Shown: positions 18,839 through 52,906 of the stretch, one piece after another
Position numbering within the stretch: the stretch's first letter is position 1
How the letters are laid out: every line of letters begins with the position of its first letter
Origin: an uncultured Chloroflexia bacterium
GTDB lineage: Bacteria; Chloroflexota; Dehalococcoidia; UBA2247; RBG-13-53-26
Length of the DNA stretch: 64,000 nucleotides
Assembly (NCBI GenBank): GCA_963720375.1
Contig: CAVRFM010000023.1
Span: 18,179 to 82,178 of the forward strand
Direction: 5' to 3'
Program-made: the position numbers and the translations under genes
The notes under the pieces: model-generated
The model's database searches: none
What the model saw: the letters and a program-made list of their open reading frames with translations, nothing else
Told to the model about the DNA's origin: nothing

Positions 18839-19120
18839 CGCGGCTCCTTCTTGCTGTTGTTTTGGTGACCCTGTAATTTACAGCAAGTCACTTGATTGCC
18901 GAGAGGCTTTGACTTATTTGCTGGTGTATTCACTTTCTCAAGGTTCTTAAAGACGAAATTCAGTGGTATTTCGAACACGACATTGAAGAAGATCTCTACA
19001 CACTCTGCAGTGAATACCGGGAAGGTCTGCCAGGTGAATAGAGGATATATGTGTTCTGAATCGGTCGTCAATTGTTTGTTCTGCTGACTCAATTAAGCGA
19101 TATCTGGGAGGGAGAAAGCT

Positions 19121-21622
19121 GTGAAAGATAAGAGAATTGCTCATGTCGGATCTCTGGAGGTCGATATCAGCACAGTCGTGCGTGACCCGCGCGGTCATGA
19201 AGACGAAATTGTCGAGATAATGGAGAACGACTTTGTTGAGGGCCGCCATAGTAATTTTGGAGGATGGATAACTCTACTGCCCGATGCGGCAGACATAGCA
19301 GAACTGGATTATGCTCTGTTGAGCAGGTATCCGCCGTTATACACTCAGCCCAATGGTGTTTGCACTGACTGTGGCCTGGGCCCCTGCAACTTGAAAGAGG
19401 GTCAGGGAAAGTGCGGACTGGATATGGAGGCTTTCCAGGGCAGGTTAAGCTTACGGAAAGCATGCCGGGGTTGTATGACTCAACTAGTGGCCAGCCGACA
19501 ATTGCTGAACTACGCTCTCAAACGCTGGCCGGAGGATACGCCTGTCAGCATGGGTGAGATTCTCGGTATCTCAGATCATGCTCCTGCCATAAGCGTGTTA
19601 TCCGGGATACACGTAAAGACTTTAAGAGATCTTAACAGAGCGCTTTCTTATGGAGAGGAACAACTGGCCAAGCTCTTTCAGGCGAGTTATTCGGGCACTG
19701 GAACGGCGGTGAATTTTGAAAGCATGGTGCTGCATGCCGGGTCTGTTTTGCTCCTCACCATGGGTGTGGCTGAGCTGCTGAAGATCTCCTGCTATGGCTT
19801 TATCAGTGCTGCCAATCAGCCACTGGAGGCGATCGAGCAGTTTCCTCCTGCCACTTTAAATGGTGGGTGGGCATCCATGGAGAGTGGGAAGCCTGTCATA
19901 GCCTTTGTTGGGGATGACTTCCTGCCGGCATGGTGTGCCATCGATCATATGAAGCAGAACGGTCTGACAGAAAAGATTGAGATATGCGGCATGGGTTCAG
20001 CCGGTGATGACATAGTGAGATTCTACGATAGGTGCCGGATCGTGGCCCCGATGGTGAGGGCGCCAAAGGCGATCAGAAATGGCCTGTTTGATGTGGTTGT
20101 GGTCAGTCCAGGATGTATTCCCCTGGACCTTCTATCCCAGGCGGAGCGTGTCGATAGCAAGGTTATATGGGTTGGTCACAATGGAATCAGCAATCTAGCG
20201 GATAGCACGGATGAGCCATCAGACAAGATAGTAGAGGCCTTACTTCATGGAGGAAAGGCAGTCTGGATCAGGGACGTAGAGAAGGCTGGTGAGGTGGCGG
20301 TGAAGTTGGCACAGAAGGTCAAGAGAAGTGGTAATTACATTATCTCTGACGATGAAGCAATAAAACAGGCAAAGGGCCATAAGCAGGATTGTGATATTTG
20401 TTCCAGTGTCTGTCCCAATAATCTGCCTGTATCCAGGGCGGTCAGAGAATTGGGTAAGGGTGACTGGAAGGGTTTCTTCGAGGTGGAGAAAGGATGCAAT
20501 TTCTGCGGCAAATGTGATGAGGCCTGCCCCAGCAAGGTTCAACTGCGCGATATCATTGTGGCTGCCGAGAGAAAGCAGGCCGGCACCGATAAATTCATAA
20601 TGAGGCCAGGCAGGGGGCCGATATCAATAACTGAGCTGCTGCAATCTGCTTTCGCAGTAGGCTGGGGCAGCATACCAGCCATGGTGACCATCTTTGGTTG
20701 CGGCGATGCCAAGAAGGAGGAGATCGCCTGGATAGCCAGTGAGTTGCTTAACGGCGGTTGCATGGTCTTTGTGGCAGGGTGTGCCGGAGCTGAAGTAGCT
20801 CGATCTTTCAGCCAGGCGAAGAAGAAGTACCTCTTTCAAGAATATGCTGGCACTTGTGCCTCGAGAAATATTGTGAATTGCGGCAGTTGCTCTGCTATTT
20901 GCCATGCTGTCCCGATGTATCTCATGCTGCGGCCTTCTGGTGGCATTCCTCTGTATGGCAATCTACCACCGCTGGGAGATTCCATCAGTCTTGGTGGTGC
21001 TCAGTCTGTGATCATGTGGGGGGCATTGCCGGACAGAATGTATGCGGTGGCAGCTGCCTGGGCTCGGCTTGGATCAACGGTCATTGTAGGGCCTGCCTCA
21101 TCCTCAGGATGGAACCGCTACCTGGTTGGTGATAGATATGATCGCAGCAAGTGGTGGGTCTATCATGGTGAGACGGGTAAGAGGCGTGAGGTTGAACCGG
21201 TAAAGGAACACTGCATTGTGCCCGTGGAAACTAAAGAGGAAGCGTTGACTATGCTGGCAAGGTCTGTGTTGAATGTAAAGGACTACAGAGAGAGCCGAGC
21301 TACTCACCTGGAGGTGATGATTGACTACTTTGAGCGCTTCTATCAGCAGTTGCCGGAGGATTGGCCTCTCTTTGTGAGGTCAGATTTCGAACTGCCGCCG
21401 AGATACAGACGACGCATGGTCAATCTCCTGGGATCCGAGTATGGATGGGAGACTGAAGGTGTGAAGGTTAAGAGAGCAAAGAATAGAGATGGCAAGCTAA
21501 TGACCATGTCTGAGTTCGCAGCTAACTATGGGATGGAGCAAGGGATATATAGCACAAGGCTTCGCACCCAGTTACCCCTACGTCTCAGGGGTGTGGCTGA
21601 TGAAGGTAAGTCTAAAAAGTAA
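19121..21622 (+). CDS. cdhA: CO dehydrogenase catalytic subunit, archaeal CdhA-like, copy 1
   Basis: 833 aa. N-terminal CTDCGLGPC...GKCG Cys cluster. Two internal ferredoxin motifs (CDICSSVCPNN; CNFCGKCDEACPS) are typical of archaeal CdhA. Adjacent to cdhB and cdhC. Confidence 0.65.
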   Translation: MKDKRIAHVGSLEVDISTVVRDPRGHEDEIVEIMENDFVEGRHSNFGGWITLLPDAADIAELDYALLSRYPPLYTQPNGVCTDCGLGPCNLKEGQGKCGLDMEAFQGRLSLRKACRGCMTQLVASRQLLNYALKRWPEDTPVSMGEILGISDHAPAISVLSGIHVKTLRDLNRALSYGEEQLAKLFQASYSGTGTAVNFESMVLHAGSVLLLTMGVAELLKISCYGFISAANQPLEAIEQFPPATLNGGWASMESGKPVIAFVGDDFLPAWCAIDHMKQNGLTEKIEICGMGSAGDDIVRFYDRCRIVAPMVRAPKAIRNGLFDVVVVSPGCIPLDLLSQAERVDSKVIWVGHNGISNLADSTDEPSDKIVEALLHGGKAVWIRDVEKAGEVAVKLAQKVKRSGNYIISDDEAIKQAKGHKQDCDICSSVCPNNLPVSRAVRELGKGDWKGFFEVEKGCNFCGKCDEACPSKVQLRDIIVAAERKQAGTDKFIMRPGRGPISITELLQSAFAVGWGSIPAMVTIFGCGDAKKEEIAWIASELLNGGCMVFVAGCAGAEVARSFSQAKKKYLFQEYAGTCASRNIVNCGSCSAICHAVPMYLMLRPSGGIPLYGNLPPLGDSISLGGAQSVIMWGALPDRMYAVAAAWARLGSTVIVGPASSSGWNRYLVGDRYDRSKWWVYHGETGKRREVEPVKEHCIVPVETKEEALTMLARSVLNVKDYRESRATHLEVMIDYFERFYQQLPEDWPLFVRSDFELPPRYRRRMVNLLGSEYGWETEGVKVKRAKNRDGKLMTMSEFAANYGMEQGIYSTRLRTQLPLRLRGVADEGKSKK

Positions 21623-21700
21623 ATACGAACCCCCCGCCAGGTTCTGTACCCTGGCACGGTAGTCACGGGAAATAGGGGTTTCTGAACGTAGAAACCGATT

Positions 21701-23101
21701 GTGTTGTGTAGGTTCCACGAAAGGGGTATACAAATGGCTATTCCAGAGGAAGAAGCAGTATCCAAACTCCCACCGGGAAGGATATTTCAGTTGCCGACAG
21801 ACCTTGATCACCTTTGGGACGGGCTGGATGACGTCGGGCTCGGTCTAAGGTGGTTGAGTGAGGTGAAGAAAGCTGACATGCACATTGAGTTGGGTGGGCC
21901 TAAGTGGGACTATAAGATGTTCTCCATCTTCTACATTGAGGAAGATCCGGAAAAGGTCAGGGATGGAGAAGTCAAGTTGATCGGCCCGGACGTTCCAGAA
22001 GTGGCAGCAGGCACCTCATTACCCGGCGGGTTTACGATAAGGATCTATGGTAAACAATTGACTCAAGCACATCAGGGCTATGTATCCAGACAGATAGGAA
22101 CTGCGCTGCAAGGCATAGAAGGATTCATGCTCTTTGGAACGCCGGATGCTCTGTGGATAAGGATAAGCAAAGACGTGGCGAACAGGTTGACCTTTGCCAA
22201 GATATCTCAGTTTTGCTATGCCACCGCGAGAACGCTGATCCCTCAGGTAGATGCCATAGCATTCTTCTGGGCAGTAGGAGCTCCTGAAGTCGGTGGTGTT
22301 GAGATGATAAACCCGCTGGTTACCTGGGCTAAGGAGAAGTTTAAGATCATAAGTGCCAAGGAGCTCTACGATGATGAAGACGTAGATACCTTCTATGGTT
22401 GCACGATCTGCAAATCCCTGGCGCCAAATCATGCCTGTGTCCTTACGCCAAGCGCGCTGCCTTACTGCGGCATCATCGGCTATGATTCGGCTAAGGTAAC
22501 AGCAGAAATAGACCCGGAAGGGTATGTTTTTACTATTCCTAAAGGTGAATGCTTGGATCAGGAGAAAGGGCATTACACGGGAGTCGACCAGGCCATATGG
22601 GAGAAATGCAATCATCTGGTAAAGCGCGTGAACATCTACAGCAGCATAAACTATCCGACTACCAATTGTGGGTGCTTTGAGGCAGCATCTTTCTACATAC
22701 CGGATGTTGATGGTATCGGTCTGGCTATGCGGCGCTATACCAAGATGACACCGCTCGGTGTCAAGTTTTCCACTTTGGCAGGTATGATCTCCGGTGGGGC
22801 TCAGAATCATGGGTTCAAGGGATTGTCGATTGCCGGTATGGCGAGTAAGAACTTCCTGCGAGGAGATGGCGGTTGGAACCGGGTAGTCTGGATGCCTGCG
22901 GATTTGAAGAGGGATATCGCGGATGTGATTCCAGAGGAGGTCTATGACAAGATTGTCACTGAGGAAGAGACTATTGATCCTCTGGAGCTCAAGGAGTTGC
23001 TCCGCAAGAAAGGACACCCAATAGTCAAGCTGTTCTGGAAGAATGGCGAACCCCAGCCATTAAAGTTGCCGCTTCCCGGTGAAGACTGGCCGGATAACTA
23101 A
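21701..23101 (+). CDS. cdhC: acetyl-CoA synthase catalytic subunit (CdhC-like), copy 2
   Basis: 466 aa, about 60% identical to copy 1. NCGCFE A-cluster motif retained. Confidence 0.75.
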   Translation: MLCRFHERGIQMAIPEEEAVSKLPPGRIFQLPTDLDHLWDGLDDVGLGLRWLSEVKKADMHIELGGPKWDYKMFSIFYIEEDPEKVRDGEVKLIGPDVPEVAAGTSLPGGFTIRIYGKQLTQAHQGYVSRQIGTALQGIEGFMLFGTPDALWIRISKDVANRLTFAKISQFCYATARTLIPQVDAIAFFWAVGAPEVGGVEMINPLVTWAKEKFKIISAKELYDDEDVDTFYGCTICKSLAPNHACVLTPSALPYCGIIGYDSAKVTAEIDPEGYVFTIPKGECLDQEKGHYTGVDQAIWEKCNHLVKRVNIYSSINYPTTNCGCFEAASFYIPDVDGIGLAMRRYTKMTPLGVKFSTLAGMISGGAQNHGFKGLSIAGMASKNFLRGDGGWNRVVWMPADLKRDIADVIPEEVYDKIVTEEETIDPLELKELLRKKGHPIVKLFWKNGEPQPLKLPLPGEDWPDN

Positions 23102-23342: not shown

Positions 23343-23365
23343 GAGGTACCCTTTTCTGGTGATGG

Positions 23366-25871
23366 TTGCTGAGGAGAGAAGTAATGGAGAAAAAGAGGAT
23401 TGCCCATGTAGGGCCTCACAAAGTTGACATAAGTGAAGTGGTGCGTGATCCCCGTGGTATTGAGGATATAGTCACGGAGATACTGGAGAAAGACTTTGTT
23501 GAGAGCCGCTATTCACAATTTGGGGCGTGGTTGAATATCTTGCCCGACGCGGCGGATATCGGTGATTGGGATCGCACTCTGCTGGAAAGATATGTGCCGC
23601 TATATACTCAGCCTCAAGGCACGTGCATTGATTGTGAGTTGGGTCCTTGCAGATCTCAAGGTAAGCAAAGGTAAATGCGGATTAGAGATGGATTCGTTTC
23701 AAGGCAGGCTGAGTTTGCGCAAGGCCTGCCGTGGCTGTATGGGCCAGATGGTAGCTACTCGTCATTTGTTGAACTATGCATTGAAGTTATGGGATGAAAG
23801 CAAGGCTGTCAGCATGGGTGAGCTCTTGACCATGTCGGATGCCTGCCCTCCTGTAGGCACTTTGAGCGGCATCTATGTGAAAACCCTCAAGGACTTGAAC
23901 AGGGTGCTCTCATATGGAGAGGCGCAGTTGGCTAAGCTGATGTCTGCGAGCTATTCAGGCACCGGAGCAGTGGCGGATTTTGAGAGCATGGTGATGCATG
24001 CTGGTTCTGTTCTGCTTCTGGCTATGGGAGTGTCTGAGATGATTAAGGTCGCTTGCTTCGGCTTTACGTCAGCCGCTAACCATAAGATTGATGAACTGGA
24101 GAATTTCCCGCCGGCCAACGTGGTTGGAGGATGGCCGTCCATAAAGGAAGGTAAGCCGGTAATTGCCTTTGTCGGCGATGATTTTCTGCCGGCATGGTGT
24201 GCCATAGAGTATCTCAAGCAGAATGAATTGTTGGACAAAGTCGAGATATGCGGTATTGGCCCTGCAGGTGATGACGTGGTGCGCTTCTATGACAAGTGCC
24301 GCATAATCGCTCCGATGGTGAAGGCGGGCAAAGCTATCAGAAATGGTGTCTTCGATGTGGTTGTAGCTGCGAACGGATGTATTCCTTTGGATATGCTATC
24401 TGAAGCGGCAAGGGTAAAGAGCAAGTTCATATGGGTAGGAGCGCAGGGAGTTGGCAATCTGGTCGATAAGACTGATGAACCTCTGGACAAGATAGTGAGT
24501 GCTCTGGTTGATGGTGAAGAGGCAGCTTGGATTAGAGATGTTGAGAAGGCTGGCCAGGTAGCAGTCAAGGTAGTCCAGCAAGTGAAGAGAACACGGCAAT
24601 TTATTCTAAGTGATGAGTTGGCAGTTGCGCAGGCTAAGAAGTGTAAGGATGATTGTGATCTTTGCTCTAGTGCTTGCCCCAATAGCTTGCCATTATCAAA
24701 GGCGGTCAGACTGTTACGCGGCGGTAACTGGGATGGTTTCTCAGAGGTGGAGAGAGGGTGCTATTTCTGTGGAAAGTGTGAAGAGGCTTGCTCGGCTGGG
24801 GTGAGGCTGCGTGACATAATAGTAGCGACTGAAAGGAAACAAGCGAAGAAGGACAAATTCATTATGAGAGCGGGAAGAGGTCCTCTCCCCCTCACTGAGA
24901 TACTGCAGTCGGCTTTTTCCATGGTCTGGGGTAATGCTCCCGGTATCGTGGTGATAGCGGGTTGTGGTGATGCTTCCCGCGATGATATCGGATGGCTGGC
25001 TCAAGAATTAACCAGACGAAACTGCATTGTCTTTGTGGCTGGATGCGCCGGTGCTGAGATTGCCCGCAACTACAGCGAAAGGAAGGGTAAGTATATTTTT
25101 GAGCAGTACCTGGCTTCTATTGAGCCACGGTCTCTCATCAACTGCGGTGGCTGCACCGCAATTTCCCTGGCGAACAACATGTATATGTACTCGCGTGCTG
25201 CCGGAGGCATTCCTCTCTATGGGGGCATACCAGAGGTAGGCGAAGGGTCACTTTATACTACCTTCACGTTGCTTGTGTGGGGTGCTCTGCCTGACAGGAT
25301 GTATGCAGCAGCAGCAGCATATGCCCGTCTTGGGATAAGGGTTGTAGTGGGTCCGGCTTCGGGTTGGACTTGGGGTCGCTATTTGCCTGGCAATAGGTAT
25401 GATCGGAGCAAATGGTGGGTCTATCATGGAGACAATGGTAGTAAGAGGGAAACCGAACCTGTTCCGGAGCATTTTATTATCCCCGTGGAAACCAAAGAGG
25501 AAGCACTGACCATGATGCCCCACACTTTCTTCAGTACATCTGAGATGAGGGAGGGTCGGGCTGCTCGTCTTGACCTGCTTATTGAGTTGTATCGGCTGTT
25601 CTATGGCCAACTTCCCGATGATTGGGATTTGTTGGTGAGGTCCCATTTGGATATCCCGACTAGGCACAGGATCAGGTTGGTTAAGCTACTTCGGGATGAA
25701 TATGGTTGGGAAGGCGATGGATTGAAGATTACCAAGGCCAGGAATCGTGATGGGAAACTGTTAACCCTGTCGGAATTCAATACCAGCTACGGTATGGAGC
25801 TGGGAAGATACCACTGCAGACTGAAGAGACTATTGCCAAAGAGTGTGAGAGATAGAGAAAAGGGCAGTTAG
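23366..25871 (+). CDS. cdhA: CdhA-like CO dehydrogenase subunit, copy 2, with apparent +1 frameshift at ~23651
   Basis: ORFs 23366..23674 and 23562..25871 together reconstitute a CdhA-1 homologue. The frames join directly after CELGPC (TGC-A-GATCTC). Confidence 0.6.
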
Positions 25872-26365: not shown

Positions 26366-26762
26366 CTTTCCTCCTGACCAGGAGGTCTGAGGGCGTGGTA
26401 ATATTCTTTTCGGTCGGTATGGCTGTCACATCTATCATCTTAAGGTTTGGCAGTTGCGATACCGATGGATCGTAGCTTCCCAGGTAGTTAGAATACAGGC
26501 TGGACGGCATATGGCCTATGCCTTCTTCGATAGCGGTTTCTGATTTTGCTGCCACCACCACGGAGCCTGATTTGCCTCTGATCTCGATAGGGGCGCCACT
26601 CTTAAGCCCCAGCTTTTTCAGATCAGCCGCGGATAGGTGCACCACGGCAGACCTGGTCTGATATTCATCGCCCAATCCATCTCTCTGCCTGGCAATCGCC
26701 TGGTGAATATCGTCATAGGTCACGATGGTCAGACTAATACCCTGGTTAGATGAATCCATCAA
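26358..26762 (-). CDS. fwdD: formylmethanofuran dehydrogenase subunit D-like (molybdopterin-binding domain)
   Basis: 134 aa. Overlaps fwdB by 4 nt. Size and context match the FwdD family. Confidence 0.5.
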   Translation of the reverse strand: MMDSSNQGISLTIVTYDDIHQAIARQRDGLGDEYQTRSAVVHLSAADLKKLGLKSGAPIEIRGKSGSVVVAAKSETAIEEGIGHMPSSLYSNYLGSYDPSVSQLPNLKMIDVTAIPTEKNITTPSDLLVRRKVA

Positions 26763-27982
26763 ATGCTCCCTGCCAATTGTTTCAGGACTTCCTCCTCGGT
26801 AGGCTGATCTACTTTTTTTGGCCCGGCTAATGCTACCTCAGCCCCATCCATTCTTATCATTGAGCCACCGTATTCTACGCCGGGCAGTGCTGTTGGTATG
26901 ACCACATCAGCGGAGATCGTGGTAGGTGTACGGAAGTGATCCAAACAGATGACGTTTATGCCCTGCAGATTCTTCATTATGGACTGAGGCAGAGCTGAAA
27001 ACGGATCTGCCCCCATTATTAGCAGGCATTCGGGGACACGGTTTCTTACTTGTTCCAATAAGGAGAACTCACTTCCGTGAGAAATGCTGCCGGCAAAGCT
27101 TATGCTGTTAACATATCCCGTCTGTTTGTAGAGCGATTGATGGAATCCTCTCATGTTGGCTTCTGCGATCATGGGAATCACAGCAACCCTGGTCGACTGA
27201 CTGAACGTATGTACCATCTTGCTGAATGAGGTGAGATCATTGTCAAGAGAGTAGATCAGGCCGAGCCCGCAGAAGATGACGCAAAAGCGAGATTTTGCCA
27301 CCATTTCTCTGAATTTTCTGGCTTCCTCACGTGCGTTTTGTCCCTCATCGAGGATGGTATTGATGAATCCCTTATCCTGTCCAGGCTTGATTCTGAAGGG
27401 CGGCTTACACATTGAGCTTAACTCAGTCTGTCTAACCTCGACGCAGCTTAGTGTTACCTTGGGGTACCATCCGGCGGGATTATAATCAGCATAGGCATAG
27501 TAAGTGTACTTCGAAAGGTGCCTCGGGTGGGTGTGGGGAGGATTGGCACCCCAGTAGATTAGCAGATCTGCATTATCTTTTACTTCGGAGAGAGAGCATG
27601 TTGGCAGATCCTCGGTAAGGATTTTCTGCATCATGACACCATATGAAAAGGATGAGGCGTCATCGATAGTTCCGCCAAGCCTTTTTGCCAGATCGATGGC
27701 AACCGCCTGTGATTCTAAGGTCGAATTATCAAGACCAAAGACGAGGAGATTCTTTGCCTTGGAAAGGAGGTGCACTGCCTCTTGAATGGCTTCTTCCAAA
27801 GAGCGCCTTTGGCCTCTAATGAGGGCCTCTGCCCGGCGCTGCGGATCGAAGCTGGAACGGAGATAGGTCGCCCCCTTGGCACAGGCGTTCTCGATACGGC
27901 CCAGATTGGCACCGTCGATCTCAACCCGGATATCGTCGCATAGGCAACCGCATCCGGTGCAGACCAAGTTCTGAAAGCTCAA
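26759..27982 (-). CDS. fwdB: formylmethanofuran dehydrogenase subunit B-like (bis-MGD oxidoreductase fold)
   Basis: N-terminal VCTGCGCLCDD Fe-S motif and downstream blocks (DLLIYWGANPPHTHPRH) align with archaeal FwdB as recalled from memory. Confidence 0.65.
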   Translation of the reverse strand: MSFQNLVCTGCGCLCDDIRVEIDGANLGRIENACAKGATYLRSSFDPQRRAEALIRGQRRSLEEAIQEAVHLLSKAKNLLVFGLDNSTLESQAVAIDLAKRLGGTIDDASSFSYGVMMQKILTEDLPTCSLSEVKDNADLLIYWGANPPHTHPRHLSKYTYYAYADYNPAGWYPKVTLSCVEVRQTELSSMCKPPFRIKPGQDKGFINTILDEGQNAREEARKFREMVAKSRFCVIFCGLGLIYSLDNDLTSFSKMVHTFSQSTRVAVIPMIAEANMRGFHQSLYKQTGYVNSISFAGSISHGSEFSLLEQVRNRVPECLLIMGADPFSALPQSIMKNLQGINVICLDHFRTPTTISADVVIPTALPGVEYGGSMIRMDGAEVALAGPKKVDQPTEEEVLKQLAGSI

Positions 27983-28100: not shown

Positions 28101-30311
28101 TCATGAATACGAAGTGCGAGCTGCTGCTGCTTCTTCGACCAAGGTGGCAGGCAGTTCCTCAGGTCCGACAAGGTAGATTCTCCCCTTCCCTACTTTGGCA
28201 ATCCTTCTCATCAACTCCGGATCGGCGGATCGCTGGTTGATACAGACGCAGGAAATTGTAATACCTCGGCGAGCTACCCTGGCAGCTTGCCTGAGGGCGT
28301 ACTTCTGTGGGGATGGATGGGGTGCTGTCGCATCGCCATCGGATATGAGGATAATATGCTGCTTTGCTCTTCCCTTGGGGTGATGTTCCAGCAATTCACA
28401 GGCCTTCAGCAAACCATAGCCGATGTTGGTAAAAGCGTTCTCATGCAGCTCGAGTTCAATTACACGGCGAGTCACTCTGTGAGGGCTGGCGGTTAGATCG
28501 ACCACAATATCAGCCAGGTTGGAGAATGAGACCACTGCCACCCTGTCTTTATATGCAGTCGCGGCCAGTGAGAGAGCCATCGCGCTTTGCTTAGCGAACC
28601 AAAATTTCTCGAGTTGCAACATAGTGCCGGAGACATCGATCACCAAGACAATATCCATTCTGGTGCGGATGTCTTTGATATTGACGATGATATCTTCTCT
28701 GGTGATGTATTGTCTTCGGTGGCGGATTGCCTCTCTCATGGTATTTCTGAATGATATGTCGCGGTATTTGTCCCCGAAGCGATAGTGGCGCATTCCCACC
28801 ACTCTGCCCTCGCCCAAGCTCAACTTCTTACCCGAGCTGTGCTTCCCATATCCATATAGATAAGCTCCCTCGTCCAACCGTGGCGTCAACTTCTCCAATA
28901 GCATGTTAATGCCACGCTGGCTGAGCATCCAGCCGCTGCTGGTACGCTCCAGGATATCTTCCTTCTCCAGAAATTCAAGGGTTTTGGCCAGCGCTTGCTG
29001 CTCTATAAGCTTGGCTATCATTTCCTTTTCTTTTCTGTATTCTTCAACTTCCTTAAGCAACTCATCATCGAGATTATCGGCTTTGTATCGTTCCGGGTAG
29101 AGCTCTGGCAAGCGACAGGCAATCTCTCTGTATAGCTGGGCCAGTTTGGAGTCAGGGAATCGTTTGATTCTCCTTAGCAGTAGATCGAAGGAGCCATATT
29201 TCAGAGGTTTCCTGAACTTATCTTCCCGGACAATCTCCTCGATCAGGGCCAGAACATCATCTTTGGTCAGGGTAGCCAGCTGTTCCCTGGCTTCATGTTT
29301 GCCGGTTACCTTCTCGACAACTTCCTCAACAATTCGCTCTCTCTTCCCGGGCAGATCGACCTCCGGGGCCAGTTTAAGGCGGTGGGGCAGCGAGACTGCT
29401 GCTGCGACAGAAAGTCTTCTATCGGCGTCCTCGTATTCCTCCAATTCAGGGAAGTGGGCTAGAAGCTCAGCATTTCTAATCATGCCGCGCGTTCCTACTC
29501 CCCTTTCTACCTCGCTGTGTCTTCTCGTCTCGTTAACTATGCGAATTGCCTGCTCAAGAACTGGTTCGGCTAAGGTTTCTGTATCACGGCCGATGTGGGC
29601 AAGAACAATCCTCTTTTGCTTATCAAGATCGTCAACGTAGTCAAGGTGGATAACATCAAAGTTGTCCAGCAAGTCCAGTGGTAATGACTTTAATGCTCCC
29701 TCTCCGCCAGTGGCTACTACTAGGGTATCCAGTTTGATCTTTTGTTCCAACACACCAATGGTTATTGTTCCATCTTGGAGGGCATACATAACTACATTGA
29801 GCACTCGCTCAGGGATTCTATCGATGAAATCAATCAGCAATATGCCTCGATTAGCCCGTAACAGTTTTCCGGGCAGGAAAGCACGAGGAGAGTAAATACC
29901 TTCTTTAAAGGCTATTTCTGGATCAAGGTCTCCGATCAGATCTTCAACCGTTAACCCTCCGCTTCCTTGTATCTTCACCAATCTCCTGGCTGCAGGGAGG
30001 ATGGTGCTGTGAAGTATTTCACCTCGCTTTTTCCTGTCTATACACCAGGGGCAGGGATCATCTTTAGGAAAACAATGTAGGGGACAGCCTTCTACTACCT
30101 CAATATCATCCAGAATAACAGGTAGGCTGTTGGCTAAACTTGTTTTACCACTTCCGGGGGGGCCAAGAATAAGCAGGTGGTGTGCACTGCAGAGACTGCT
30201 TAGTAAGGCCAGCTTCTTCGCATCTTCTATTTGAAGATCATCAAAGACTGACCGGCTAAACTTGTCAGTGCCTATTCTGTCTAGGGTGGTAAGGATTTCT
30301 TCCAGAAGCAA
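28101..30311 (-). CDS. ChlD/BchD-like protein: AAA+ N-domain with Cys4 insertion + C-terminal VWA domain
   Basis: GPPGSGKTS Walker A. CPLHCFPKDDPCPWC insertion. C-terminal VLVIDVSGTM...ILISDGDATAP is a VWA domain with a MIDAS motif. 736 aa. Confidence 0.7.
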   Translation of the reverse strand: MLLEEILTTLDRIGTDKFSRSVFDDLQIEDAKKLALLSSLCSAHHLLILGPPGSGKTSLANSLPVILDDIEVVEGCPLHCFPKDDPCPWCIDRKKRGEILHSTILPAARRLVKIQGSGGLTVEDLIGDLDPEIAFKEGIYSPRAFLPGKLLRANRGILLIDFIDRIPERVLNVVMYALQDGTITIGVLEQKIKLDTLVVATGGEGALKSLPLDLLDNFDVIHLDYVDDLDKQKRIVLAHIGRDTETLAEPVLEQAIRIVNETRRHSEVERGVGTRGMIRNAELLAHFPELEEYEDADRRLSVAAAVSLPHRLKLAPEVDLPGKRERIVEEVVEKVTGKHEAREQLATLTKDDVLALIEEIVREDKFRKPLKYGSFDLLLRRIKRFPDSKLAQLYREIACRLPELYPERYKADNLDDELLKEVEEYRKEKEMIAKLIEQQALAKTLEFLEKEDILERTSSGWMLSQRGINMLLEKLTPRLDEGAYLYGYGKHSSGKKLSLGEGRVVGMRHYRFGDKYRDISFRNTMREAIRHRRQYITREDIIVNIKDIRTRMDIVLVIDVSGTMLQLEKFWFAKQSAMALSLAATAYKDRVAVVSFSNLADIVVDLTASPHRVTRRVIELELHENAFTNIGYGLLKACELLEHHPKGRAKQHIILISDGDATAPHPSPQKYALRQAARVARRGITISCVCINQRSADPELMRRIAKVGKGRIYLVGPEELPATLVEEAAAARTSYS

Positions 30312-30329
30312 TTTGTATATCGTCCGACT

Positions 30330-31091
30330 TCAACTGTAGCTCAGTATCTTCTTGCAGATTTCATCTATCGCAATGGATGCTGGAGAGTCTTTTGGAATCT
30401 CGCTCACAGGTTTGCCTTCGCCATCAAACTGTGCCACTAGCGGTTCGAAGGGGATATAGGCTGCTATCTCGAGACCGTTTTCCTTGGCCAACTCGTCTAC
30501 TCGAGACCTGTTTTCCTCCGTCACTCTGTTGGCCACTATCAGGATGGCGCCAAACTCGATATTGAGCTCTCTTGATATCTCCACAATTCTCTTAGCAGTT
30601 TGAATGGCATTTTTTGTAGGATCGGTAACCACCAGCATGATGTCAACATCCCGGGTAGTGCGCCGGCTAAGGTGCTCCAGCCCTGCGTGACAGTCGATTA
30701 TAGTGAAATCATAACCCCTTGCTCTAGTGTCTATTACCTGTCGGATGACGTGGTTGACGGCGCAGTAGCATCCCTCACCCTCCGAACGCCCCATTACGAG
30801 TATGTCGAATTGAGGGAACTCCTCAATAGCTTCGTGGAGGGCCAACTCCAGATGTTCTTGTTTAGAATTTGTCACCTTGCTACGAGCTGGTGCGTTTATA
30901 ATTGCCTCCCGGCTCTCTCCTACATTCTTGGTCACTGTCACACCAAGGGCTTGGGGGAGGTTGGAATCCGGGTCGGCATCAATTGCCAGTACACTACCGT
31001 GCTCCGATAACTTCTTTACCAGCATGCCTGACACAAAGGTCTTCCCTACTCCGCCCTTTCCGGAGACCGCAATAGCAAGTCCTCTGCTCAT
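30330..31091 (-). CDS. cooC: CooC-type Ni-insertion ATPase (MinD/ParA family)
   Basis: Deviant Walker A AVSGKGGVGKT. GCYCAVN CxC Ni-binding motif characteristic of CooC/AcsF. Confidence 0.75.
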   Translation of the reverse strand: MSRGLAIAVSGKGGVGKTFVSGMLVKKLSEHGSVLAIDADPDSNLPQALGVTVTKNVGESREAIINAPARSKVTNSKQEHLELALHEAIEEFPQFDILVMGRSEGEGCYCAVNHVIRQVIDTRARGYDFTIIDCHAGLEHLSRRTTRDVDIMLVVTDPTKNAIQTAKRIVEISRELNIEFGAILIVANRVTEENRSRVDELAKENGLEIAAYIPFEPLVAQFDGEGKPVSEIPKDSPASIAIDEICKKILSYS

Positions 31092-32128
31092 GAGTACTTC
31101 CCTTCCAGAACGCTATTTACCAGTTCATTAATCAAATTCATGGGGTCATCGTAGAACTTGGACTCAGGCGATGGCTTGATTCTGCTACCAAGAGAGGAAG
31201 CGGCCATATTTCGTATATCATCCATATTTGCTTCAGATCGGTTTTCCAGCTTTGCCACAGCCTGTACCTTCTCATAAAGCGAAAGTGTAGCTCTTACACT
31301 GGCGGCTTGATCCATCTCCTTCGACCAAGGCTCTTCACGTGTAGCTCGTACCAGGGCAACCACGGCATCAAGTACTTTATCCGGCACTCTTACGTTATCA
31401 ATCCTGAGGCCATATCGGACTACTATCTCCTTCTCTTTTTGCAGAGATTCAGGATAGCCCATCTTGACTACATCAAATCTATCGAGAAGGACATCGGAAA
31501 GCTCCTCGACCCCAGCCCGTTCTCTCGGATTCATGGTAGCTATCATCACAAAATCAGCCGGGTAGTCTACGTCGTAAGGCCCTATCGTCGCGATGCCCTC
31601 TTCAAGGACCTCTAATAGAGCATTTTGAAGTTTCTCTGTAACCCTGTTAAGTTCATCGAAGAAAACGATCCCTCGATTGCCTTTGAGCAATTTCCCCGGC
31701 AAGAATGCTCGGTAGTCCTGGGGACCATACTTGAAAGCCTGTGTTGGATCGATATCTCCCAAGAGGTCCTCAGCCGTAAGGTCAGGAGAACCCTGCAACC
31801 TGACGAACCTTTGCTCACCAGGAATTATAGTGGACTCCAGTTTCTCACCAGTGGAAGCCTTTGCCTTGCACTGTGGGCAGACAGGCTGTTCCGGGTGGCA
31901 ATGGTAAGGACAACCCTTCACCACCTTTATAGGAGGCAAAGCTGCCGCTATGTGCTTGGCGAGAGTAGTCTTGCCAACTCCAGGCGGTCCCTCAATCAGC
32001 ACGTGATGGCCAGCCAGCAATGACGCAAGGATCCTTTTCTTGGCATCATCCTGGCCCACAATGACTGAAAGCATGTCATTCCCATCGGTCGCAGATTTCA
32101 GGATCGTTTCTCTTAGTCCCTCAATCAT
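31088..32128 (-). CDS. ChlI/BchI-like AAA+ ATPase with Cys4 zinc-ribbon insertion
   Basis: VIVGQDDAKKRILASLL + GPPGVGKTT + LPPIKVV matches the magnesium-chelatase I-subunit N-terminal pattern. CPYHCHPEQPVCPQC is inserted after it. 4-nt overlap with cooC. Confidence 0.7.
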   Translation of the reverse strand: MIEGLRETILKSATDGNDMLSVIVGQDDAKKRILASLLAGHHVLIEGPPGVGKTTLAKHIAAALPPIKVVKGCPYHCHPEQPVCPQCKAKASTGEKLESTIIPGEQRFVRLQGSPDLTAEDLLGDIDPTQAFKYGPQDYRAFLPGKLLKGNRGIVFFDELNRVTEKLQNALLEVLEEGIATIGPYDVDYPADFVMIATMNPRERAGVEELSDVLLDRFDVVKMGYPESLQKEKEIVVRYGLRIDNVRVPDKVLDAVVALVRATREEPWSKEMDQAASVRATLSLYEKVQAVAKLENRSEANMDDIRNMAASSLGSRIKPSPESKFYDDPMNLINELVNSVLEGKYS

Positions 32129-44056: not shown

Positions 44057-45247
44057 CTACGATGCATCGGCCTTGGTTGTAGCAGTTTCATCTGACTTGT
44101 GCTCTGCGGACTCTTCATGATGCTCGGCGATGGGCAGGAACCTGTTGGCCAGCATGAAGACTAAAATGCCGCCCGACACGATACCGATTGACACGGCGAA
44201 CTCGCCGAAGCTGGGGAAGTAGGAATAACCCGGACGTATCGCCAGTTGCAGCAGGCTAGAATTGAAGCGGTTGAACACCAAGCCGCCGATGACGAAGATG
44301 GAACTGATGAACAGGCCTTTCCGGCTCTGCTGGATCTTGGGTATGGAGAATAGGATGATGGGCACCACGACGCCAAGGATAACCTCAGCGAACCAAATAA
44401 GGTTTTGTGGATATTCAGTGCCCAGGGCCTTCAACTCATTAAAATGAGGCCAGCCGGCGAATACAATGTCGCCGACTTTCAGCACCAGGTAGAGTGCCAA
44501 GGGGTAGCGAAGTATCTTGCCCAAGCCGCTCAAGACCTCCAGTCCTATCTGGTGGTGGAAAGCCTTGCCGCTGAGGGTGGACTCGAAGATGACCATAGCT
44601 GGCCCCACGGCTACTGCGGAGACGAAGAACAGCAGGGGCATTATTGGCGTGTACCACAGGTGGTTGAGAGTGTTACCCATTATGAGCATCATGGATCCCA
44701 ACGAGTTCTGATGGCCGGTGGAGATGACGATGCCGGCGATGACCAAAGGGATCTGTATCATGCGGATGAACTTCAGGGGGATGCTCCAGTGGAGCTTCTC
44801 GAAGACTGCCGGGCTGATTTCCAATGCCAGCACAGCGGTGTACAGCATGACGCACCAGCCCACTTCATATAGTGGAGAGTGGATATTCGGATTGAAGATC
44901 ATCTTCCAGATGTACCAGGGTTGTCCGAGGTCAACCAGCAGAGCGAAGACGACCAGCAGATATCCCAGGAAGGCGGTTAGGATGGCTGGTCTCACCACCG
45001 GATGGTACTTCTCCATATGGAAGATGTAGACGATGGCTGCCAGGGTGAATCCGCCTGCTGCCAGCGCCACACCGCAGTAGAGGTCGAAGCTGATCCATAG
45101 GCCCCAGCCGCGGCCATCACTCATGTTGGTCATGGCCCCAAGTCCCATGCCGTAGCGGACCACTGCCGTTGCCAGGAAGATGACCACCAGGAGGGCCAGG
45201 AAGAGGGTGCCGACGGGTAGTCTGCGTTCTTTCTGTTGCGTTGTCAT
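44057..45247 (-). CDS. hybB: hydrogenase membrane-anchor subunit, NrfD/HybB family
   Basis: 396 aa, polytopic hydrophobic protein. Sits at the operon position of hydrogenase cytochrome-b-less membrane subunits. Confidence 0.6.
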   Translation of the reverse strand: MTTQQKERRLPVGTLFLALLVVIFLATAVVRYGMGLGAMTNMSDGRGWGLWISFDLYCGVALAAGGFTLAAIVYIFHMEKYHPVVRPAILTAFLGYLLVVFALLVDLGQPWYIWKMIFNPNIHSPLYEVGWCVMLYTAVLALEISPAVFEKLHWSIPLKFIRMIQIPLVIAGIVISTGHQNSLGSMMLIMGNTLNHLWYTPIMPLLFFVSAVAVGPAMVIFESTLSGKAFHHQIGLEVLSGLGKILRYPLALYLVLKVGDIVFAGWPHFNELKALGTEYPQNLIWFAEVILGVVVPIILFSIPKIQQSRKGLFISSIFVIGGLVFNRFNSSLLQLAIRPGYSYFPSFGEFAVSIGIVSGGILVFMLANRFLPIAEHHEESAEHKSDETATTKADAS

Positions 45248-45251
45248 CTCG

Positions 45252-46206
45252 TCAACCCTCCTTCTTCTCTTCTTGCTTGGTGGCGGCCAGTTTTTGGCGG
45301 CGCTTGGTGTACCAATAGGCGCCGGCCATAAGGATTATCACCCCCCCGGCGTAGAAAGGCAGTGTGCCCATAGCCTTTCTGGCATTCTTTGGCGCTGCTT
45401 CATCGCTGACCTGAGCGAAATGCAACTCTTCGAAGGAAACTGGAGAGATGTATATCCAGGCTGTGCCACCTACCTCTTCCTCTCCATATACGTGATCGTA
45501 ATACAGTTGCGGCTGAGCCGCGATTCGGCTGTGTGCCTCATTAATGAGGTCATTGCGATTACCGAATTTAAGTGCTCCTGATGGGCATGTCCCGGTGCAG
45601 GCTGGTTGGAGATTCTGGGCCTGTCTATCGGCGCAGAAGGTGCACTTCCTAATCCATGGTGATGCCTTCTCCCATTGATAGGTCGGAATGCCAAAGGGAC
45701 AAGCCGACATGCAATAGCGACAGCCGATGCATTTGTTTTGGATGTATACTACCGGCCCGTCTTCATGTTTTCTCAAGGCGCCGACTATGCAGGCCCCGGC
45801 GCAGGCTGGCTCATTACAGTGCATGCACTGCCGTTTCCAGTAGACGAAGTCTTGATCTGGCTGGTCAACCTCCACTGTGTTTATCGTAGTGAATGTGTTG
45901 CTGTCCAACCCCGGCGGGTTGTGCTGGTTAGTCCCTCTATCGGGAATGGTTGACATCTGGTAGCTGGTTCCACTGCTTACAGGCTATTACGCAAGCTCTG
46001 CACCCAACACACTTGGTTATGTCGACCAACACCCCGTGGCCGTTCTCTCCATTGGTACTGGAGCTATGCTGCTTCAGGGAGCCATCGTTCTGATCAGAGG
46101 CCACACCTGAAACTGGTAGCCCGATGAAGGATCTTCTGGTCAGCTCCACTTGATCGCTCCTTTCTGATAGCCGCAGAGCCACAAGCAAACAGAGGCGATT
46201 CGCCAA
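45252..46206 (-). CDS. hybA: hydrogenase 4Fe-4S ferredoxin-type subunit (HybA-like), apparent +1 frameshift at ~45940-45960
   Basis: ORFs 45937..46206 (Tat-like RRSFIGLP, CVGCRAC) and 45252..45956 (CMHCNEPAC, CIGCRYC, CTFC, C-terminal TM helix) overlap in different frames. Confidence 0.6.
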
Positions 46207-46250: not shown

Positions 46251-46781
46251 CTAAACACCAGCAGTTGACGGGGCTGACACCCCCAGTTCGCTAAGTACGA
46301 GTTCAATCACTCGCGGTATCATTGACTTCACTTTAGGTGTAAGTTCCAATCCCCAGCCCAATTCCTCAGGCTCTATGCCATAAAAGACCACGCTCTGTGG
46401 GGCATGGCCCAGGTACTCCACATGAGTTAAGGCATCTAACACACCAAGCTGGTGCAACGAAGTGATGATTTCCTTGTGGACGCTGATGTCACCTGGGGTG
46501 AATCGGTAGAGTGTTCCCGGCTCATGGTCAGCTTTGACGGCGTCGATGATAATGACCTTGTCGCGATCCCTGAGAATATCAAGGAGAGCCATAGATGCCG
46601 TGCCACCGTCGAGAACTTCCACGTTGTCCGGCATCTTCATCTGCTCCATAGCCTCCACAACCCGAACCCCTACCCCCTCATCGCTGAGGAGGATATTGCC
46701 CACACCCAGAACAAGCATAGGGGCACGGGTGGTTTTGTCTTTCTCTCCTTGTCTCATCGCTACGTTTGGCATCATCAGCAA
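46251..46781 (-). CDS. hupD: hydrogenase maturation endopeptidase (HyaD/HybD/HupD family)
   Basis: LVLGVGNILLSDEGVG N-terminal signature. 176 aa. Confidence 0.75.
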   Translation of the reverse strand: MLMMPNVAMRQGEKDKTTRAPMLVLGVGNILLSDEGVGVRVVEAMEQMKMPDNVEVLDGGTASMALLDILRDRDKVIIIDAVKADHEPGTLYRFTPGDISVHKEIITSLHQLGVLDALTHVEYLGHAPQSVVFYGIEPEELGWGLELTPKVKSMIPRVIELVLSELGVSAPSTAGV

Positions 46782-46792: not shown

Positions 46793-48377
46793 TTAGATTA
46801 CGCGGAACCTGCCTATCTCAGTACCCTTGGGCGTGACCAGATGGATGGCGCAAGCCAAACAGGGGTCAAAGGCACGTATTATCCGCACGATCTCAAACGG
46901 GTTCGCCTCGTCTTTGACCGTGGTGCCGATGATGGCCTGCTCCGCAGGGCCTGGCACGTCGTTGTCATCCTTGGGTGAGAAATTCCAGGTGCTGGGGACG
47001 ACGCACTGGTAATTCTCAATTGCGTGGTTCTTGACGCTTATCCAATGTCCCAGCGCTCCGCGCGGTGCATCCCAGAGTCCCATCCCTTCGCCGTTATCCT
47101 CCAAATCACGCCTGTAATCCAGGTATGTTGGCTCATTCGGATTCAATGTAAGCACCCAGTTTGCCATGTTATCGGCAACAATCTTGCACTCGAGCGCACG
47201 GGCTGCATGCCTGCCAAGGACACTGAACAGTGCATCGGCACCAGCACCGAAATAGCTCAGTACACCATCCACGGCTGCCTTGACAGTGGGATCGCCCGCT
47301 ACGTAGCTCACGACCATACGGGCGAGTGGTCCTACCTCATATGGCATGCCTCCGTATCGAGGCGCCTTTACCCAGCTATAGGCTCCCGACTTGTTGTGGT
47401 CCGGGTCGGTTTGGCCCACGCCGGGATATAGCCCAGATGGGCTGCTATACCAACTGTACTTCACCTGCTCAGTAATCTGCTTAGCATCAATGGCTCCCAA
47501 ATTTGTGAGGTCCGTGAGCGAAACCCTTCCCTGCGTAAACAGTCTCTTCCGCTTTGTCAGGTCGGTCTCATCGGTCTCCAAATCGAAGACGCCGTAAGTC
47601 ATGAGATTACCACAGCCCTTGCCGATACCGAAGTAATCGGAGTAGACCCCGGCCACTGCCAGAACATCGGGGATATAGACATTGTCAATGAACTGGCGCA
47701 GTTGATTCAGCTTCCACAGGAAATTGGTCATCCTGTCGGTTGTGGCGTTCTCAGTGGCACCGCCGGGGACGATGCCAACGTTGTGCGGCATCCTGCCGCT
47801 GAAAATGGCGGACATCTCGTGAGCCAGACGGCGCATGTCCAGCGCCTGCACGTAGTGAGCCACGGCCTGCTGGTTCACATCAGGTGGACAGGCGGTAGTC
47901 ACCTTCATAGCGAGGGAAGAAGGGCCCTAGCTTAGCCGTATCCGTGCCGGCTCGCTCGATGAAGTTGCTGACCGAGATAAGGGCAGGATCATTGCCCGTA
48001 TATCCGGCGGCTGCCGTGACATCGACGTAGTCCAGAGCCGTGAGGTGGTAGAAGTGAAGAATATGAGACTGTATATAGTTCGCACCCTGGATCAAGTTGC
48101 GAATTATGCGGCCATTGTCCGGTATCTGATCAGCGATACCGAAGGCGCTGTCGAGGCATAGCGCTGAAGCCAGCGCATGGGCCGTCGGTCAAACCCCGCA
48201 GATGCGCTGCACCAGAAATTGAGCATCAAAGGGTTCTCGCCCCTTCAGGATGGTCTCGATACCCCTGAAGAGCATGCCAACACTTTTGGCGTCTTTGACC
48301 ACACCACCCTCAACCGTCACCTCTATCTTCAGGTGGCCCTCTATACGAGTTACCGGGTCAATAACAATCGTTCCCAT
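46793..48377 (-). CDS. hupL: [NiFe] hydrogenase large subunit, interrupted by in-frame TGA (48189..48191) and a +1 frameshift (~47888)
   Basis: N-terminal RIEGH...RICGV-TGA-PTAHALAS. Middle block NGRIIRN... C-terminal DPCLACAIH. Three track ORFs; the first two are in the same frame, separated only by TGA. Confidence 0.75.
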
Positions 48378-48474: not shown

Positions 48475-49671
48475 CTATTGCTCCTTTTTCTCCTCTTGGC
48501 TTTCGGGCGTGCCCTCAGAGGAACCCTTGGCCTTGTTGGCCACGTACAGGCCGCCTCCTACTACTGCAGCGCCTACTGCAGCGCCAACGACTCCACCCAC
48601 AACTCCAGCCACGACGGGGTTGAATCCTTTCTTCTCCTCGGTTTGCACTTGCAGCGCCTCCACTTCCCAACTTGCGGGCTCTCGTCTGATCGAAGCTGAA
48701 CCTTCAGGCAAGTAGCCGGCGAAATCCGGGAAGGTGGGTTCGGCGCAGCCATGGCAGAGGCTGTTGGCTCCGACGCACCAGTTAGTGCCGCTGTTCCACA
48801 GCCTCTTGGGGCAATCGGCGTGGGTTACCGGCCCCTTGCACCCCAACTGGTACATGCAGTAGGGATCAGAGAACTTCTTGGAGAACTGGCCTCTCTCGAA
48901 ATAGCTGTATCGTGGGCAGTTGTGGTGAATGAGCTCTCCGTAGAACATAGTTGGTCGGCCTTGGTCATCCAGGTTGAGCGCTGCCAATCCCCCTATAAGG
49001 TATGTAGCTACTGTGCCAACAAACCAGTCGGGATGAGGCGGACAGCCGGGGACATTGACGACTGGGGTAGTGATCCCTGCATCAGAGAATACTTTCCGGG
49101 CGCTCACGCAGCCAGAAGGATTGGGCTTGGCGGCGGCGATGCCACCACCGACAGCACAAGTCCCTAGAGCGATGACTGCCATGGCATCTGCACCCAGGGT
49201 CTGCACCCAGTGCAGGCCAGTCACATCATTGCCGTTGCTGTCTTGCCCGAATTCGCAGTAGATGCCATCATCTTTGGTTGAGATGCCACCTTCCACCACT
49301 AGAACATAGCCACCTTTGTTTTCGGCGGTGTCCGTCAGTGCCTTAATGGCTTGGTCTCCTGCTGCTGCCATGATGGTAGCGTGATAGCGTAGACTGAGGT
49401 GGTCGCCCGGCACAACCTCGTCTACAAGGACATTCTGAATTCTGGGGCTGAGAGAGTTGAGGACTGACACCGAGCATCCAGTACAGGTGCCGGTCTGTAT
49501 CCAGACTACTGGCACCTCGATCGTAGCGCTGGCGTCAGCAGCCCGAGCTACTCCATTTCTCCCCTTAAGATTAGGGATACTAACGTAAAGCAGGCTCACT
49601 GCCAGCGCAGAACCTCCGGCAACTTTCAGAAAATCGCGGCGTGACCATTCTTTAGTATTTGCCATCATCAA
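48475..49671 (-). CDS. hupS: [NiFe] hydrogenase small subunit with Tat signal and C-terminal membrane anchor
   Basis: SRRDFLK twin-arginine motif. CTGCS and GCPP Fe-S blocks. C-terminal hydrophobic VVAGVVGGVVGAAVGAAVVGG. Confidence 0.85.
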   Translation of the reverse strand: MMMANTKEWSRRDFLKVAGGSALAVSLLYVSIPNLKGRNGVARAADASATIEVPVVWIQTGTCTGCSVSVLNSLSPRIQNVLVDEVVPGDHLSLRYHATIMAAAGDQAIKALTDTAENKGGYVLVVEGGISTKDDGIYCEFGQDSNGNDVTGLHWVQTLGADAMAVIALGTCAVGGGIAAAKPNPSGCVSARKVFSDAGITTPVVNVPGCPPHPDWFVGTVATYLIGGLAALNLDDQGRPTMFYGELIHHNCPRYSYFERGQFSKKFSDPYCMYQLGCKGPVTHADCPKRLWNSGTNWCVGANSLCHGCAEPTFPDFAGYLPEGSASIRREPASWEVEALQVQTEEKKGFNPVVAGVVGGVVGAAVGAAVVGGGLYVANKAKGSSEGTPESQEEKKEQ

Positions 49672-52519: not shown

Positions 52520-52906
52520 CTAGTCGCCTGGCTGGGCCAGAGACCATACCACCCTAACGGCATTAATGATGGCTGCAGGATCATAAGAACAGCTATATAG
52601 GCCACCATTCCGTTCAGAACTCTGCCCAGTCCGTCGATAACGTCGTCCAGGGGACTGAATGGTCTGCACTGCGCTTCCAACTACCACTAAGGCAATAGCT
52701 GCTACCAGGAAGGGTATCATCTCCCTGCCGGTGATGTTGAACAGTCCGATGATGATGCCCATGATGACCAGGATCAGGACAATGGTACCGTTGTCCCGGG
52801 ACACGCCACCTCCGATGATGGCCAGGAGCATGCCTGCGAAGAACGCTATGGCGCCGATTATGCCTATCATGCTCCTTTGTGTCTTGGATGATGATGTGTT
52901 GACCAC
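52520..52906 (-). CDS. small membrane protein
   Basis: Several hydrophobic helices (IGIIGAIAFFAGMLLAIIGGG; ILVIMGIIIGLF). Confidence 0.4.
   Translation of the reverse strand: MVNTSSSKTQRSMIGIIGAIAFFAGMLLAIIGGGVSRDNGTIVLILVIMGIIIGLFNITGREMIPFLVAAIALVVVGSAVQTIQSPGRRYRRTGQSSERNGGLYSCSYDPAAIINAVRVVWSLAQPGD

Follow-up and report, generated by a model that had tools for sequence, protein, structure and literature searches.

An in-frame UGA with a SECIS-type hairpin at the bridging-cysteine codon of a Group 1 hydrogenase clade in Dehalococcoidia-like Chloroflexota: a probable selenocysteine codon

To our knowledge, selenium is a terminal ligand of nickel in every [NiFeSe] hydrogenase that has been characterised biochemically or structurally, and the variant with selenocysteine (Sec) at the N-terminal bridging position has never been studied in a natural enzyme, having been noted before from sequence alone. 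The 64,000-nucleotide stretch of contig CAVRFM010000023.1 analysed here (the window) carries on its minus strand a hupL-like [NiFe] hydrogenase large-subunit gene (46793..48377) with an in-frame UGA (48191..48189) at the second cysteine codon of the N-terminal motif RxCGxC. This UGA is very probably a Sec codon, served by a selenocysteine insertion sequence (SECIS), in a Group 1 periplasmic membrane-anchored uptake hydrogenase of a Dehalococcoidia-like member of the Chloroflexota. Enzymes with Sec only in the N-terminal motif have been described for Group 4, where 47 were counted (CXXU in 27, UXXC in 4 and UXXU in 16; Takano et al., 2026, PMC13582414). According to that paper, Baltazar et al. 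[quoted passage not shown] (2021, PMC8020662), whose work gives the C79U variant of Escherichia coli Hyd-1 as active at 13% of native, the best of four Sec variants, with a lower KM for H2. A sequence-only reading of the window had held Sec at this position to be unprecedented, a claim that these earlier reports contradict. No paper was found in the literature searched that describes the Dehalococcoidia Hup-type clade considered here, the Group 1 pair of Baltazar et al. being known only second-hand. Judged from sequence comparison, the TGA is a genuine conserved recoding site followed by a SECIS-type hairpin, and it belongs to a whole Group 1 CXXU clade, of a kind known before from a few sequence observations.

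Translated on the minus strand from 48377, the gene reads MGTIVIDPVTRIEGH...FLVQRICGV, then a stop, then PTAHALASALCL; beyond the TGA the same frame keeps reading (PTAHALASALCLDSAFGIADQIPDNGRIIRNLIQGANY...), and the gene has 527 codons once the TGA is read as Sec and one extra base, discussed below, is removed. [quoted passage not shown] At the C-terminal Ni-binding motif DPCLAC (46850..46867, minus), the residue that classical [NiFeSe] enzymes have as Sec is a Cys (TGT, 46861..46859), and DPC[LI]AC stands at the C-terminus of all TGA-type relatives. Translation of 48377..46793 bore out the sequence-only reading on both points, the TGA being in frame at the second Cys of RxCGxC and the C-terminal motif an ordinary DPCLAC (46867..46850). 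Since the Sec that defines classical [NiFeSe] hydrogenases, where it replaces the first Cys in the C-terminal motif (DPUxxC), is absent, the enzyme is not one of them; what it has is the feature of the N-terminal CXXU type, an in-frame UGA at the second Cys of CXXC that is kept among orthologues. Homologues and both window open reading frame (ORF) pieces match PF00374/PF27537, and phmmer finds 1FRF_L at E = 7.5e-134 over residues 2-526; among solved structures, the large subunits of the periplasmic [NiFe] and [NiFeSe] enzymes from Desulfovibrio come nearest (E = 1e-118 to 1e-134). The named database relatives are Chloroflexota and Dehalococcoidia metagenome-assembled genomes (MAGs), and the nearest characterised orthologue is HupL of Dehalococcoides mccartyi (64.7% identity, P0113). 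The PF00374 fold, the N-terminal RxCGxC with UGA at its second Cys and the C-terminal DPCxxC are those of a Group 1 large subunit; its HydDB subgroup is presumably 1a, as for Dehalococcoides Hup, the one piece of evidence for this being the identity to D. mccartyi HupL just given.

The comparison of orthologues at this codon, which the sequence-only reading had proposed, found an in-frame TGA at the equivalent of codon 63 in no fewer than 15 independent assemblies from JGI, ENA, Logan and GTDB, with proteins 70-97% identical (loci L001-L006, L064-L068, L070, L072, L135, L137, L145 and L146). The gene is otherwise intact, with a length divisible by 3, in L001-L006, L064-L068, L070 and L072, and the TGA is also present in L135 and L137, where the genes are incomplete or frame-broken. 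Scans of genome and metagenome collections supplied L006, a Dehalococcoidia MAG with a TGA-type gene, together with L064-L068, L070, L072, L135 and L137, and an exact-sequence look-up located the same arrangement on a 1.84-Mb contig (L145/L147; ERZ25039480 contig_30969) and on the short contig L146. The best database matches to the repaired protein are ORFs truncated at the N-terminus, and their contigs hold a 62-aa ORF, an in-frame TGA at the equivalent codon and an intact remainder. Among the TGA-type genes, the ratio of non-synonymous to synonymous substitution (dN/dS) is about 0.09 on either side of the codon (pairwise values of 0.06-0.15 upstream and 0.09-0.18 downstream), and synonymous sites are near saturation (pS 0.6-0.8); both parts are therefore translated in one frame. 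TGA is the stop codon of 13 of the 29 confident window genes, including rpoB and clpB, and as an ordinary stop it excludes a reassigned genetic code.

These data bear directly on two other explanations. The first takes the TGA for a pseudogene-type nonsense mutation or for a TGC-to-TGA error of sequencing or assembly, followed by a coincidental hairpin, and the window operon does hold two likely indel errors; its chance is nonetheless minute, given the recurrence of the TGA across those assemblies, a downstream dN/dS of about 0.09 and a hairpin constrained at synonymous sites. Both alternatives that the sequence-only reading had kept in play for the codon, a TGC-to-TGA error and a pseudogene, are rejected on that recurrence and on the purifying selection on its two sides. 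The second supposes that translation stops at the UGA and restarts downstream, so that a 62-aa peptide and a C-terminal protein would form a split subunit like VhuA/VhuU of Methanococcus, and gene callers do annotate two ORFs in every relative. They start the downstream ORF at differing places (433, 373, 447 and 412 aa), and the first start codon after the UGA falls at codon 95 in the window and L001, at about 81 in L004, about 116 in L005 and about 155 in L002; with starts that differ in this way between close relatives, a conserved restart is ruled out. Purifying selection on the 30-90 codons from the UGA to those starts is the same as elsewhere in the gene, and a split subunit would have no second Cys ligand at all, which makes restart extremely improbable.

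Directly 3' of the UGA lies a SECIS-type upper stem-loop, GCGCUG-GCUU-CAGCGC (48161..48176, minus), that is conserved in the TGA-types. Its 5' arm GCGCUG (48176..48171) begins 12 nt after the UGA, its loop GCUU (48170..48167) begins 18 nt after it with G as the first base, and its 3' arm CAGCGC occupies 48166..48161. The case for this hairpin is decisive because of the comparative data and not because of single-sequence folding. All 15 TGA-type sequences compared share one and the same 6-bp stem, with a loop of GCUU or GCUG, while the flanking synonymous sites vary freely. In a set of 12 full-length TGA-type genes, 132 four-fold codons are conserved, and the third base is invariant in only 5 of them, four of which (codons +5, +6, +7 and +9) form the stem and loop; by our own arithmetic, such a placement has a chance of about 4e-7. 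No hairpin is present in the nearest Cys-type genes (L144, L069, L078, L076 and L134), and Cys-types at a greater distance whose peptide is the same (ALASAQ) encode it with other codons and no pairing. When a hairpin was defined by a dG of -7.5 kcal/mol or lower together with G at loop position 1 or 2, it was present in 10 of 13 TGA-types against 3 of 94 Cys-types; the dG of the hairpin is about -9 to -11 kcal/mol.

In its position, its loop and the selection upon it, this element fits a bacterial SECIS. The bSECISearch criteria reportedly place the apical loop about 16-37 nt from the UGA, a range that includes the 18 nt seen here, and Liu et al. (1998) are said to have found that a minimal upper stem-loop suffices at an 11-nt distance in E. 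coli, a spacing that the window matches. A G at loop position 1 or 2 is 100% conserved in the bacterial SECIS loops of Sec-type hydrogenases (PMC13582414), and both loop forms found here have one. The synonymous-site constraint is moreover tied to the UGA, the hairpin being lost in the Cys-type L144, which is nested among Sec-types. The minimum free energy (MFE) structure of the window additionally predicts an internal loop and, with it, a lower stem (CGA.GGC / GCC.UCG) beneath the hairpin, in a region (48152..48188, minus) that also holds the CAU/AUG pairing named by the sequence-only reading, which had described a stem of 6-9 bp. The 6-bp stem and the 4-nt loop of that description are conserved. 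The CAU/AUG extension that makes up its 9-bp version is unsupported: relatives show CAC and UAAA in its place, and both this pairing and the lower stem are missing in L066, L068, L072 and L135, so that neither is probably required.

In the mechanism proposed here, the 16-nt hairpin would act as a bacterial SECIS during translation and bring SelB-GTP-Sec-tRNA(Sec) to the A site, where Sec would be inserted without termination. In the mature enzyme a selenolate would then replace the thiolate that bridges Ni and Fe, at the residue that corresponds to Cys79 of E. coli Hyd-1 and Cys68 of D. gigas, while the position of the C-terminal Sec would stay Cys; the product would be a CXXU-type [NiFeSe] hydrogenase. 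Decoding by SelB and tRNA(Sec), the identity of the inserted residue as Sec rather than Cys and the effect on catalysis are all expectations drawn from the codon and its hairpin. The same signals would be produced if the UGA were recoded as Cys by a SelC*-type tRNA(ReC) delivered by SelB at the same SECIS, which would leave an ordinary [NiFe] enzyme with an unusual encoding. Such a tRNA decodes UGA as Cys given a SECIS, and sequence cannot tell Cys from Sec (Takano 2026, PMC13582414); the hairpin, four-fold-site and dN/dS comparisons fit Cys recoding equally well. On the other hand, of the surveyed Sec-type genomes that lack a UXXU motif, only about 2.3% were found to have tRNA(ReC) (PMC13582414), there is none within the window, and a Cys codon would serve cost-free, yet the UGA and its hairpin have been kept across saturated synonymous divergence. 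Recoding as Cys appears improbable for these reasons.

Several observations weigh against Sec insertion in this gene. The support for it comes from sequence and not from the protein level. Taken by itself, the window sequence has only a moderate advantage in folding over shuffles (z from about -2.5 to -2.9): a 23-nt version of the hairpin has an MFE of -10.8 kcal/mol (z = -2.85; 4 of 200 shuffles fold equally well), and the UGA with the following 42 nt has one of -18.5 kcal/mol (z = -2.5). The covariation that the sequence-only reading suggested looking for is not there; the hairpin is kept in all TGA-types, and as its stem never varies the support is conservation and not compensatory change. 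No Rfam family matched the hairpin at the gathering or a permissive threshold. Neither selA, selB, selD nor tRNA-Sec was found in the 64-kb window or in the retrieved relative loci: ARAGORN reported only a tRNA-Ser on the window and nothing on nine related loci, NCBIfam scans of 20 large window ORFs gave no SelA, SelB or SelD, and tblastn of the E. coli SelA, SelB and SelD against all retrieved DNA gave only weak AIRS-domain matches (24-26% identity), probably HypE-like. A scan of the window for ORF pairs joined by TGA returned only adjacent genes or antisense noise. Sec decoding does exist in the class Dehalococcoidia, as Dehalogenimonas alkenigignens has selC, selA, selB and selD together with a Sec-type formate dehydrogenase (PMC4918011), and Sec-type formate dehydrogenases are present in deep-sea Chloroflexi. 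Finally, the window copy is frameshifted in both hupL and the adjacent iron-sulfur (FeS) subunit gene, and function in this exact genome is not assured.

The hupL frameshift is a 1-nt insertion (T at 47888, within 47880..47890, minus) that lies within a hypervariable stretch. It leads to a premature TGA at 47882..47880, about 300 nt downstream of the codon-63 TGA; the first frame ends ...GDYRLST before this stop, and the remainder (PPDVNQQAVAHY...) is in another frame, the 371-aa ORF at 46793..47908 having a different frame from the N-terminal part. The sequence-only statement that the gene runs without any frame change therefore holds locally around codon 63 and fails at this extra T. The insertion is absent from L001, L002, L064, L145 and all other relatives, whose genes are of a length divisible by 3. 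Likewise, the HybA-like FeS gene is broken by a 1-nt insertion at about 45958 (CTACC-A-GATG, 45937-45960, minus), which splits it into ORFs 45937..46206 and 45252..45956; intact 298-aa versions exist in L002 and L145, and the insertion is absent from L001, L002, L004 and L145. The sequence-only reading had noticed neither of the two insertions. Programmed +1 frameshifting at 47888 was considered and rejected: the site is window-specific, the relatives are in frame, and ACC-UGA allows no re-pairing.

Two explanations of these insertions have to be weighed. They are probably consensus errors at strain-variable sites, since the window looks at both like a merge of the alleles of L001 and L002 (94.9% DNA identity to the window for L001, 97.4% for L002/L003). 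At the FeS site the two alleles are CTAC-A-GATG and CTAC-C-GATG and the window reads CTAC-CA-GATG, and at the hupL site they are CTG-CCACCT and CTG-TCTGCT and the window reads CTG-T-CCACCT. The insertions could instead be real, in which case the Sec codon would be ancestral and functional in the relatives while the window copy would be a recently inactivated pseudogene operon. Both are absent from the closest relatives (L001, L002, L003, L145 and L146), both lie inside one 5-kb operon while the neighbouring rpoB and rpoC are intact, and neither sits in a homopolymer, the usual place of sequencing indels. A merge of two alleles at both sites is, on the contrary, the signature of consensus error in a mixed-strain assembly, and dN/dS between the window and L001 or L002 (0.09-0.14) shows no relaxation, so that recent inactivation is a tentative and rather doubtful account of the window copy.

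In a first tree, built from the scanned loci only, the TGA-types looked monophyletic, a result that was rejected after further Cys-type proteins were added (0% bootstrap). A first group of Sec-types comprises the window gene, L001, L002, L064, L065, L005 and L004, which together with the Cys-type L144 reach 100% bootstrap, L144 being sister to the Sec-type L004 (87%); a second comprises L066, L068, L006, L070 and L072 (76% support), and Cys-types fall between the two. Both groups have the same hairpin and encode HALA(S/A)AL, and independent gains are therefore less likely than a single origin with later reversions to Cys or than exchange of the segment. The otherwise conserved N-terminus of L144 has diverged most in its hairpin region. 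The same mosaic of Sec and Cys forms is known in Group 4b enzymes (PMC13582414).

Other N-terminal TGA codons came to light in related hydrogenases. In L008 (Anaerolineae MAG JBHIEC010000001.1, ~4760-4775) and L009 (Anaerolineales MAG DQUX01000264.1, ~3695-3710), TGA occupies both N-terminal Cys codons, giving the motif RI-TGA-GV-TGA of the UxxU type in Group 1-like genes with otherwise intact frames and the C-termini DPCIAC and DPCMAC; their hairpins are GCGCUG-AGUU-CAGCGC in L008 and CUGCUC-CGUGC-GAGCAG in L009. Descriptions of UXXU so far concern only Group 4 (Takano 2026, PMC13582414). Among short database proteins that resemble the 62-aa N-terminus (P0121-P0240), 24 clusters end at RxCGV, implying a stop at the second Cys, and 11 further clusters end at QRI, QRT, SRI or ERI, implying a stop at the first; several such clusters lie on contigs of 20-227 kb. 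Judged by these protein ends and not by codons, N-terminal Sec seems to be widespread in Group 1-like hydrogenases. In Bacillota, a CxxU-type TGA occurs in L043 (~578; Syntrophomonadaceae, 3.8-Mb contig; RVCGV-TGA), whose gene adjoins a Cys-type paralogue, and in L053 (~8522; Desulforudis sp. MAG; RICGV-TGA), and no convincing hairpin was found in either by the simple dG and loop-G criterion.

The operon of the window runs in the order hupS-hupL-protease-FeS-NrfD, after which come rpoB and rpoC, all of the hydrogenase genes being on the minus strand. The small-subunit gene hupS (48475..49671; PF01058 + PF14720) encodes a twin-arginine signal (SRRDFLK) and a hydrophobic C-terminal anchor; downstream of hupL follow a maturation endopeptidase of the HycI/HupD family (46251..46781; PF01750, E = 3e-32), a HybA/HupX-like 4Fe-4S subunit gene with a twin-arginine (Tat)-type TRRSF signal (45252..46149; Pfam Fer4_11) and an NrfD/HybB-like integral membrane subunit (44057..45247; PF03916, E = 5e-25), presumed to be the quinone-reducing anchor. 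A neighbouring small subunit that bears a twin-arginine signal, together with a gene for a C-terminal endopeptidase, is the context of a Group 1 enzyme, and by its gene content the operon layout is that of a periplasmic, membrane-anchored uptake hydrogenase predicted to pass electrons to quinone.

Elsewhere in the window, two tandem archaeal-type CO dehydrogenase/acetyl-CoA synthase gene sets occupy 17242-25871 on the plus strand (cdhC-like genes at 17242..18606 and 21701..23101, cdhA-like genes at 19121..21622 and 23562..25871). A gene resembling formylmethanofuran dehydrogenase subunit B (FwdB) lies in the region 26358-27982 on the minus strand (TIGR03129, E = 1.6e-94), with small ORFs after it, and adjoins Mg-chelatase-like/VWA AAA ATPase genes (28101..32128); it is Cys-type with no in-frame TGA, 26759..27982 being complete without an upstream piece. 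Relative to L002, ORF 52520..52906, which has no family assignment, differs by a 1-nt deletion and a 1-nt insertion (52580 and 52665) that lie 85 nt apart and compensate each other, recoding about 28 codons. A 31-nt insertion relative to L002 (54704-54734) is intergenic, between a B12/radical-SAM gene and a CoA-ligase-like gene.

Discussion of selenium use in hydrogenases, in terms of O2 tolerance and a bias toward H2 production, rests largely on the terminal-ligand position, and a natural conserved clade with Se at the Ni-Fe bridge would allow the effect of a bridging selenolate to be tested directly. The Hup enzyme of Dehalococcoides, a close relative of the clade, can be produced in E. coli (PMC6258894). 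Every gene caller splits the TGA-type genes into a 62-aa ORF and a truncated ORF, so that hydrogenase surveys of Chloroflexota and subsurface metagenomes under-count or mis-annotate them. A wider and more speculative reading is that there exists a hydrogenase family with bridging-selenolate CxxU and double-Sec UxxU forms, in which CxxU might have arisen once in subsurface Dehalococcoidia with one SECIS that also dictates HALA(S/A)AL, might have been lost repeatedly since, and might be kept because bridging Se alters catalysis, for example toward a higher H2 affinity as in E. coli C79U.

Compared with known systems, the window operon is closest to HupL/HupS/HupX of D. mccartyi, with which it shares a Tat-exported small subunit, an Fe-S partner and an adjacent maturation protease; unlike the window gene, D. 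mccartyi HupL has RICGVC with Cys and no hairpin, and the window operon encodes in addition an NrfD-like membrane subunit. In E. coli Hyd-1 C79U, also of Group 1, Sec holds the same bridging position; this variant is artificial, made by inserting Sec at UAG through an EF-Tu-dependent system in an O2-tolerant Group 1d enzyme, whereas the window case would be natural and SECIS-dependent. The SECIS of E. coli fdhF is likewise a hairpin in the coding region directly 3' of the UGA with a G-containing apical loop; it has no sequence similarity to the window element, whose stem is a perfect 6-bp GC-rich helix closed by a tetraloop with no bulged U, and whose binding by SelB is putative. The classical [NiFeSe] enzymes (Desulfomicrobium baculatum, 1CC1; Desulfovibrio vulgaris Hildenborough Hys, 2WPN/5JSU) are homologous periplasmic Group 1 heterodimers (E about 1e-118 to 1e-126) and, like the enzyme proposed here, use Sec from a UGA and SECIS as a Ni ligand. 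In them Sec is the terminal Ni ligand in DPUxxC, whereas in the window this motif is DPCLAC and Sec would be the N-terminal bridging ligand. The N-terminal CXXU enzymes of Group 4 (Takano 2026) are alike in their C-terminal Cys, in a stem-loop that follows closely and has G as its first or second loop base, in the mosaic of Sec and Cys within one clade and in having Chloroflexota among their hosts. Unlike these, the window enzyme is of the Group 1 Hup type, periplasmic, with a Tat-exported small subunit and HybA-like and NrfD-like subunits, and is not an energy-converting complex; its CXXU clade comprises more than 10 distinct lineages.

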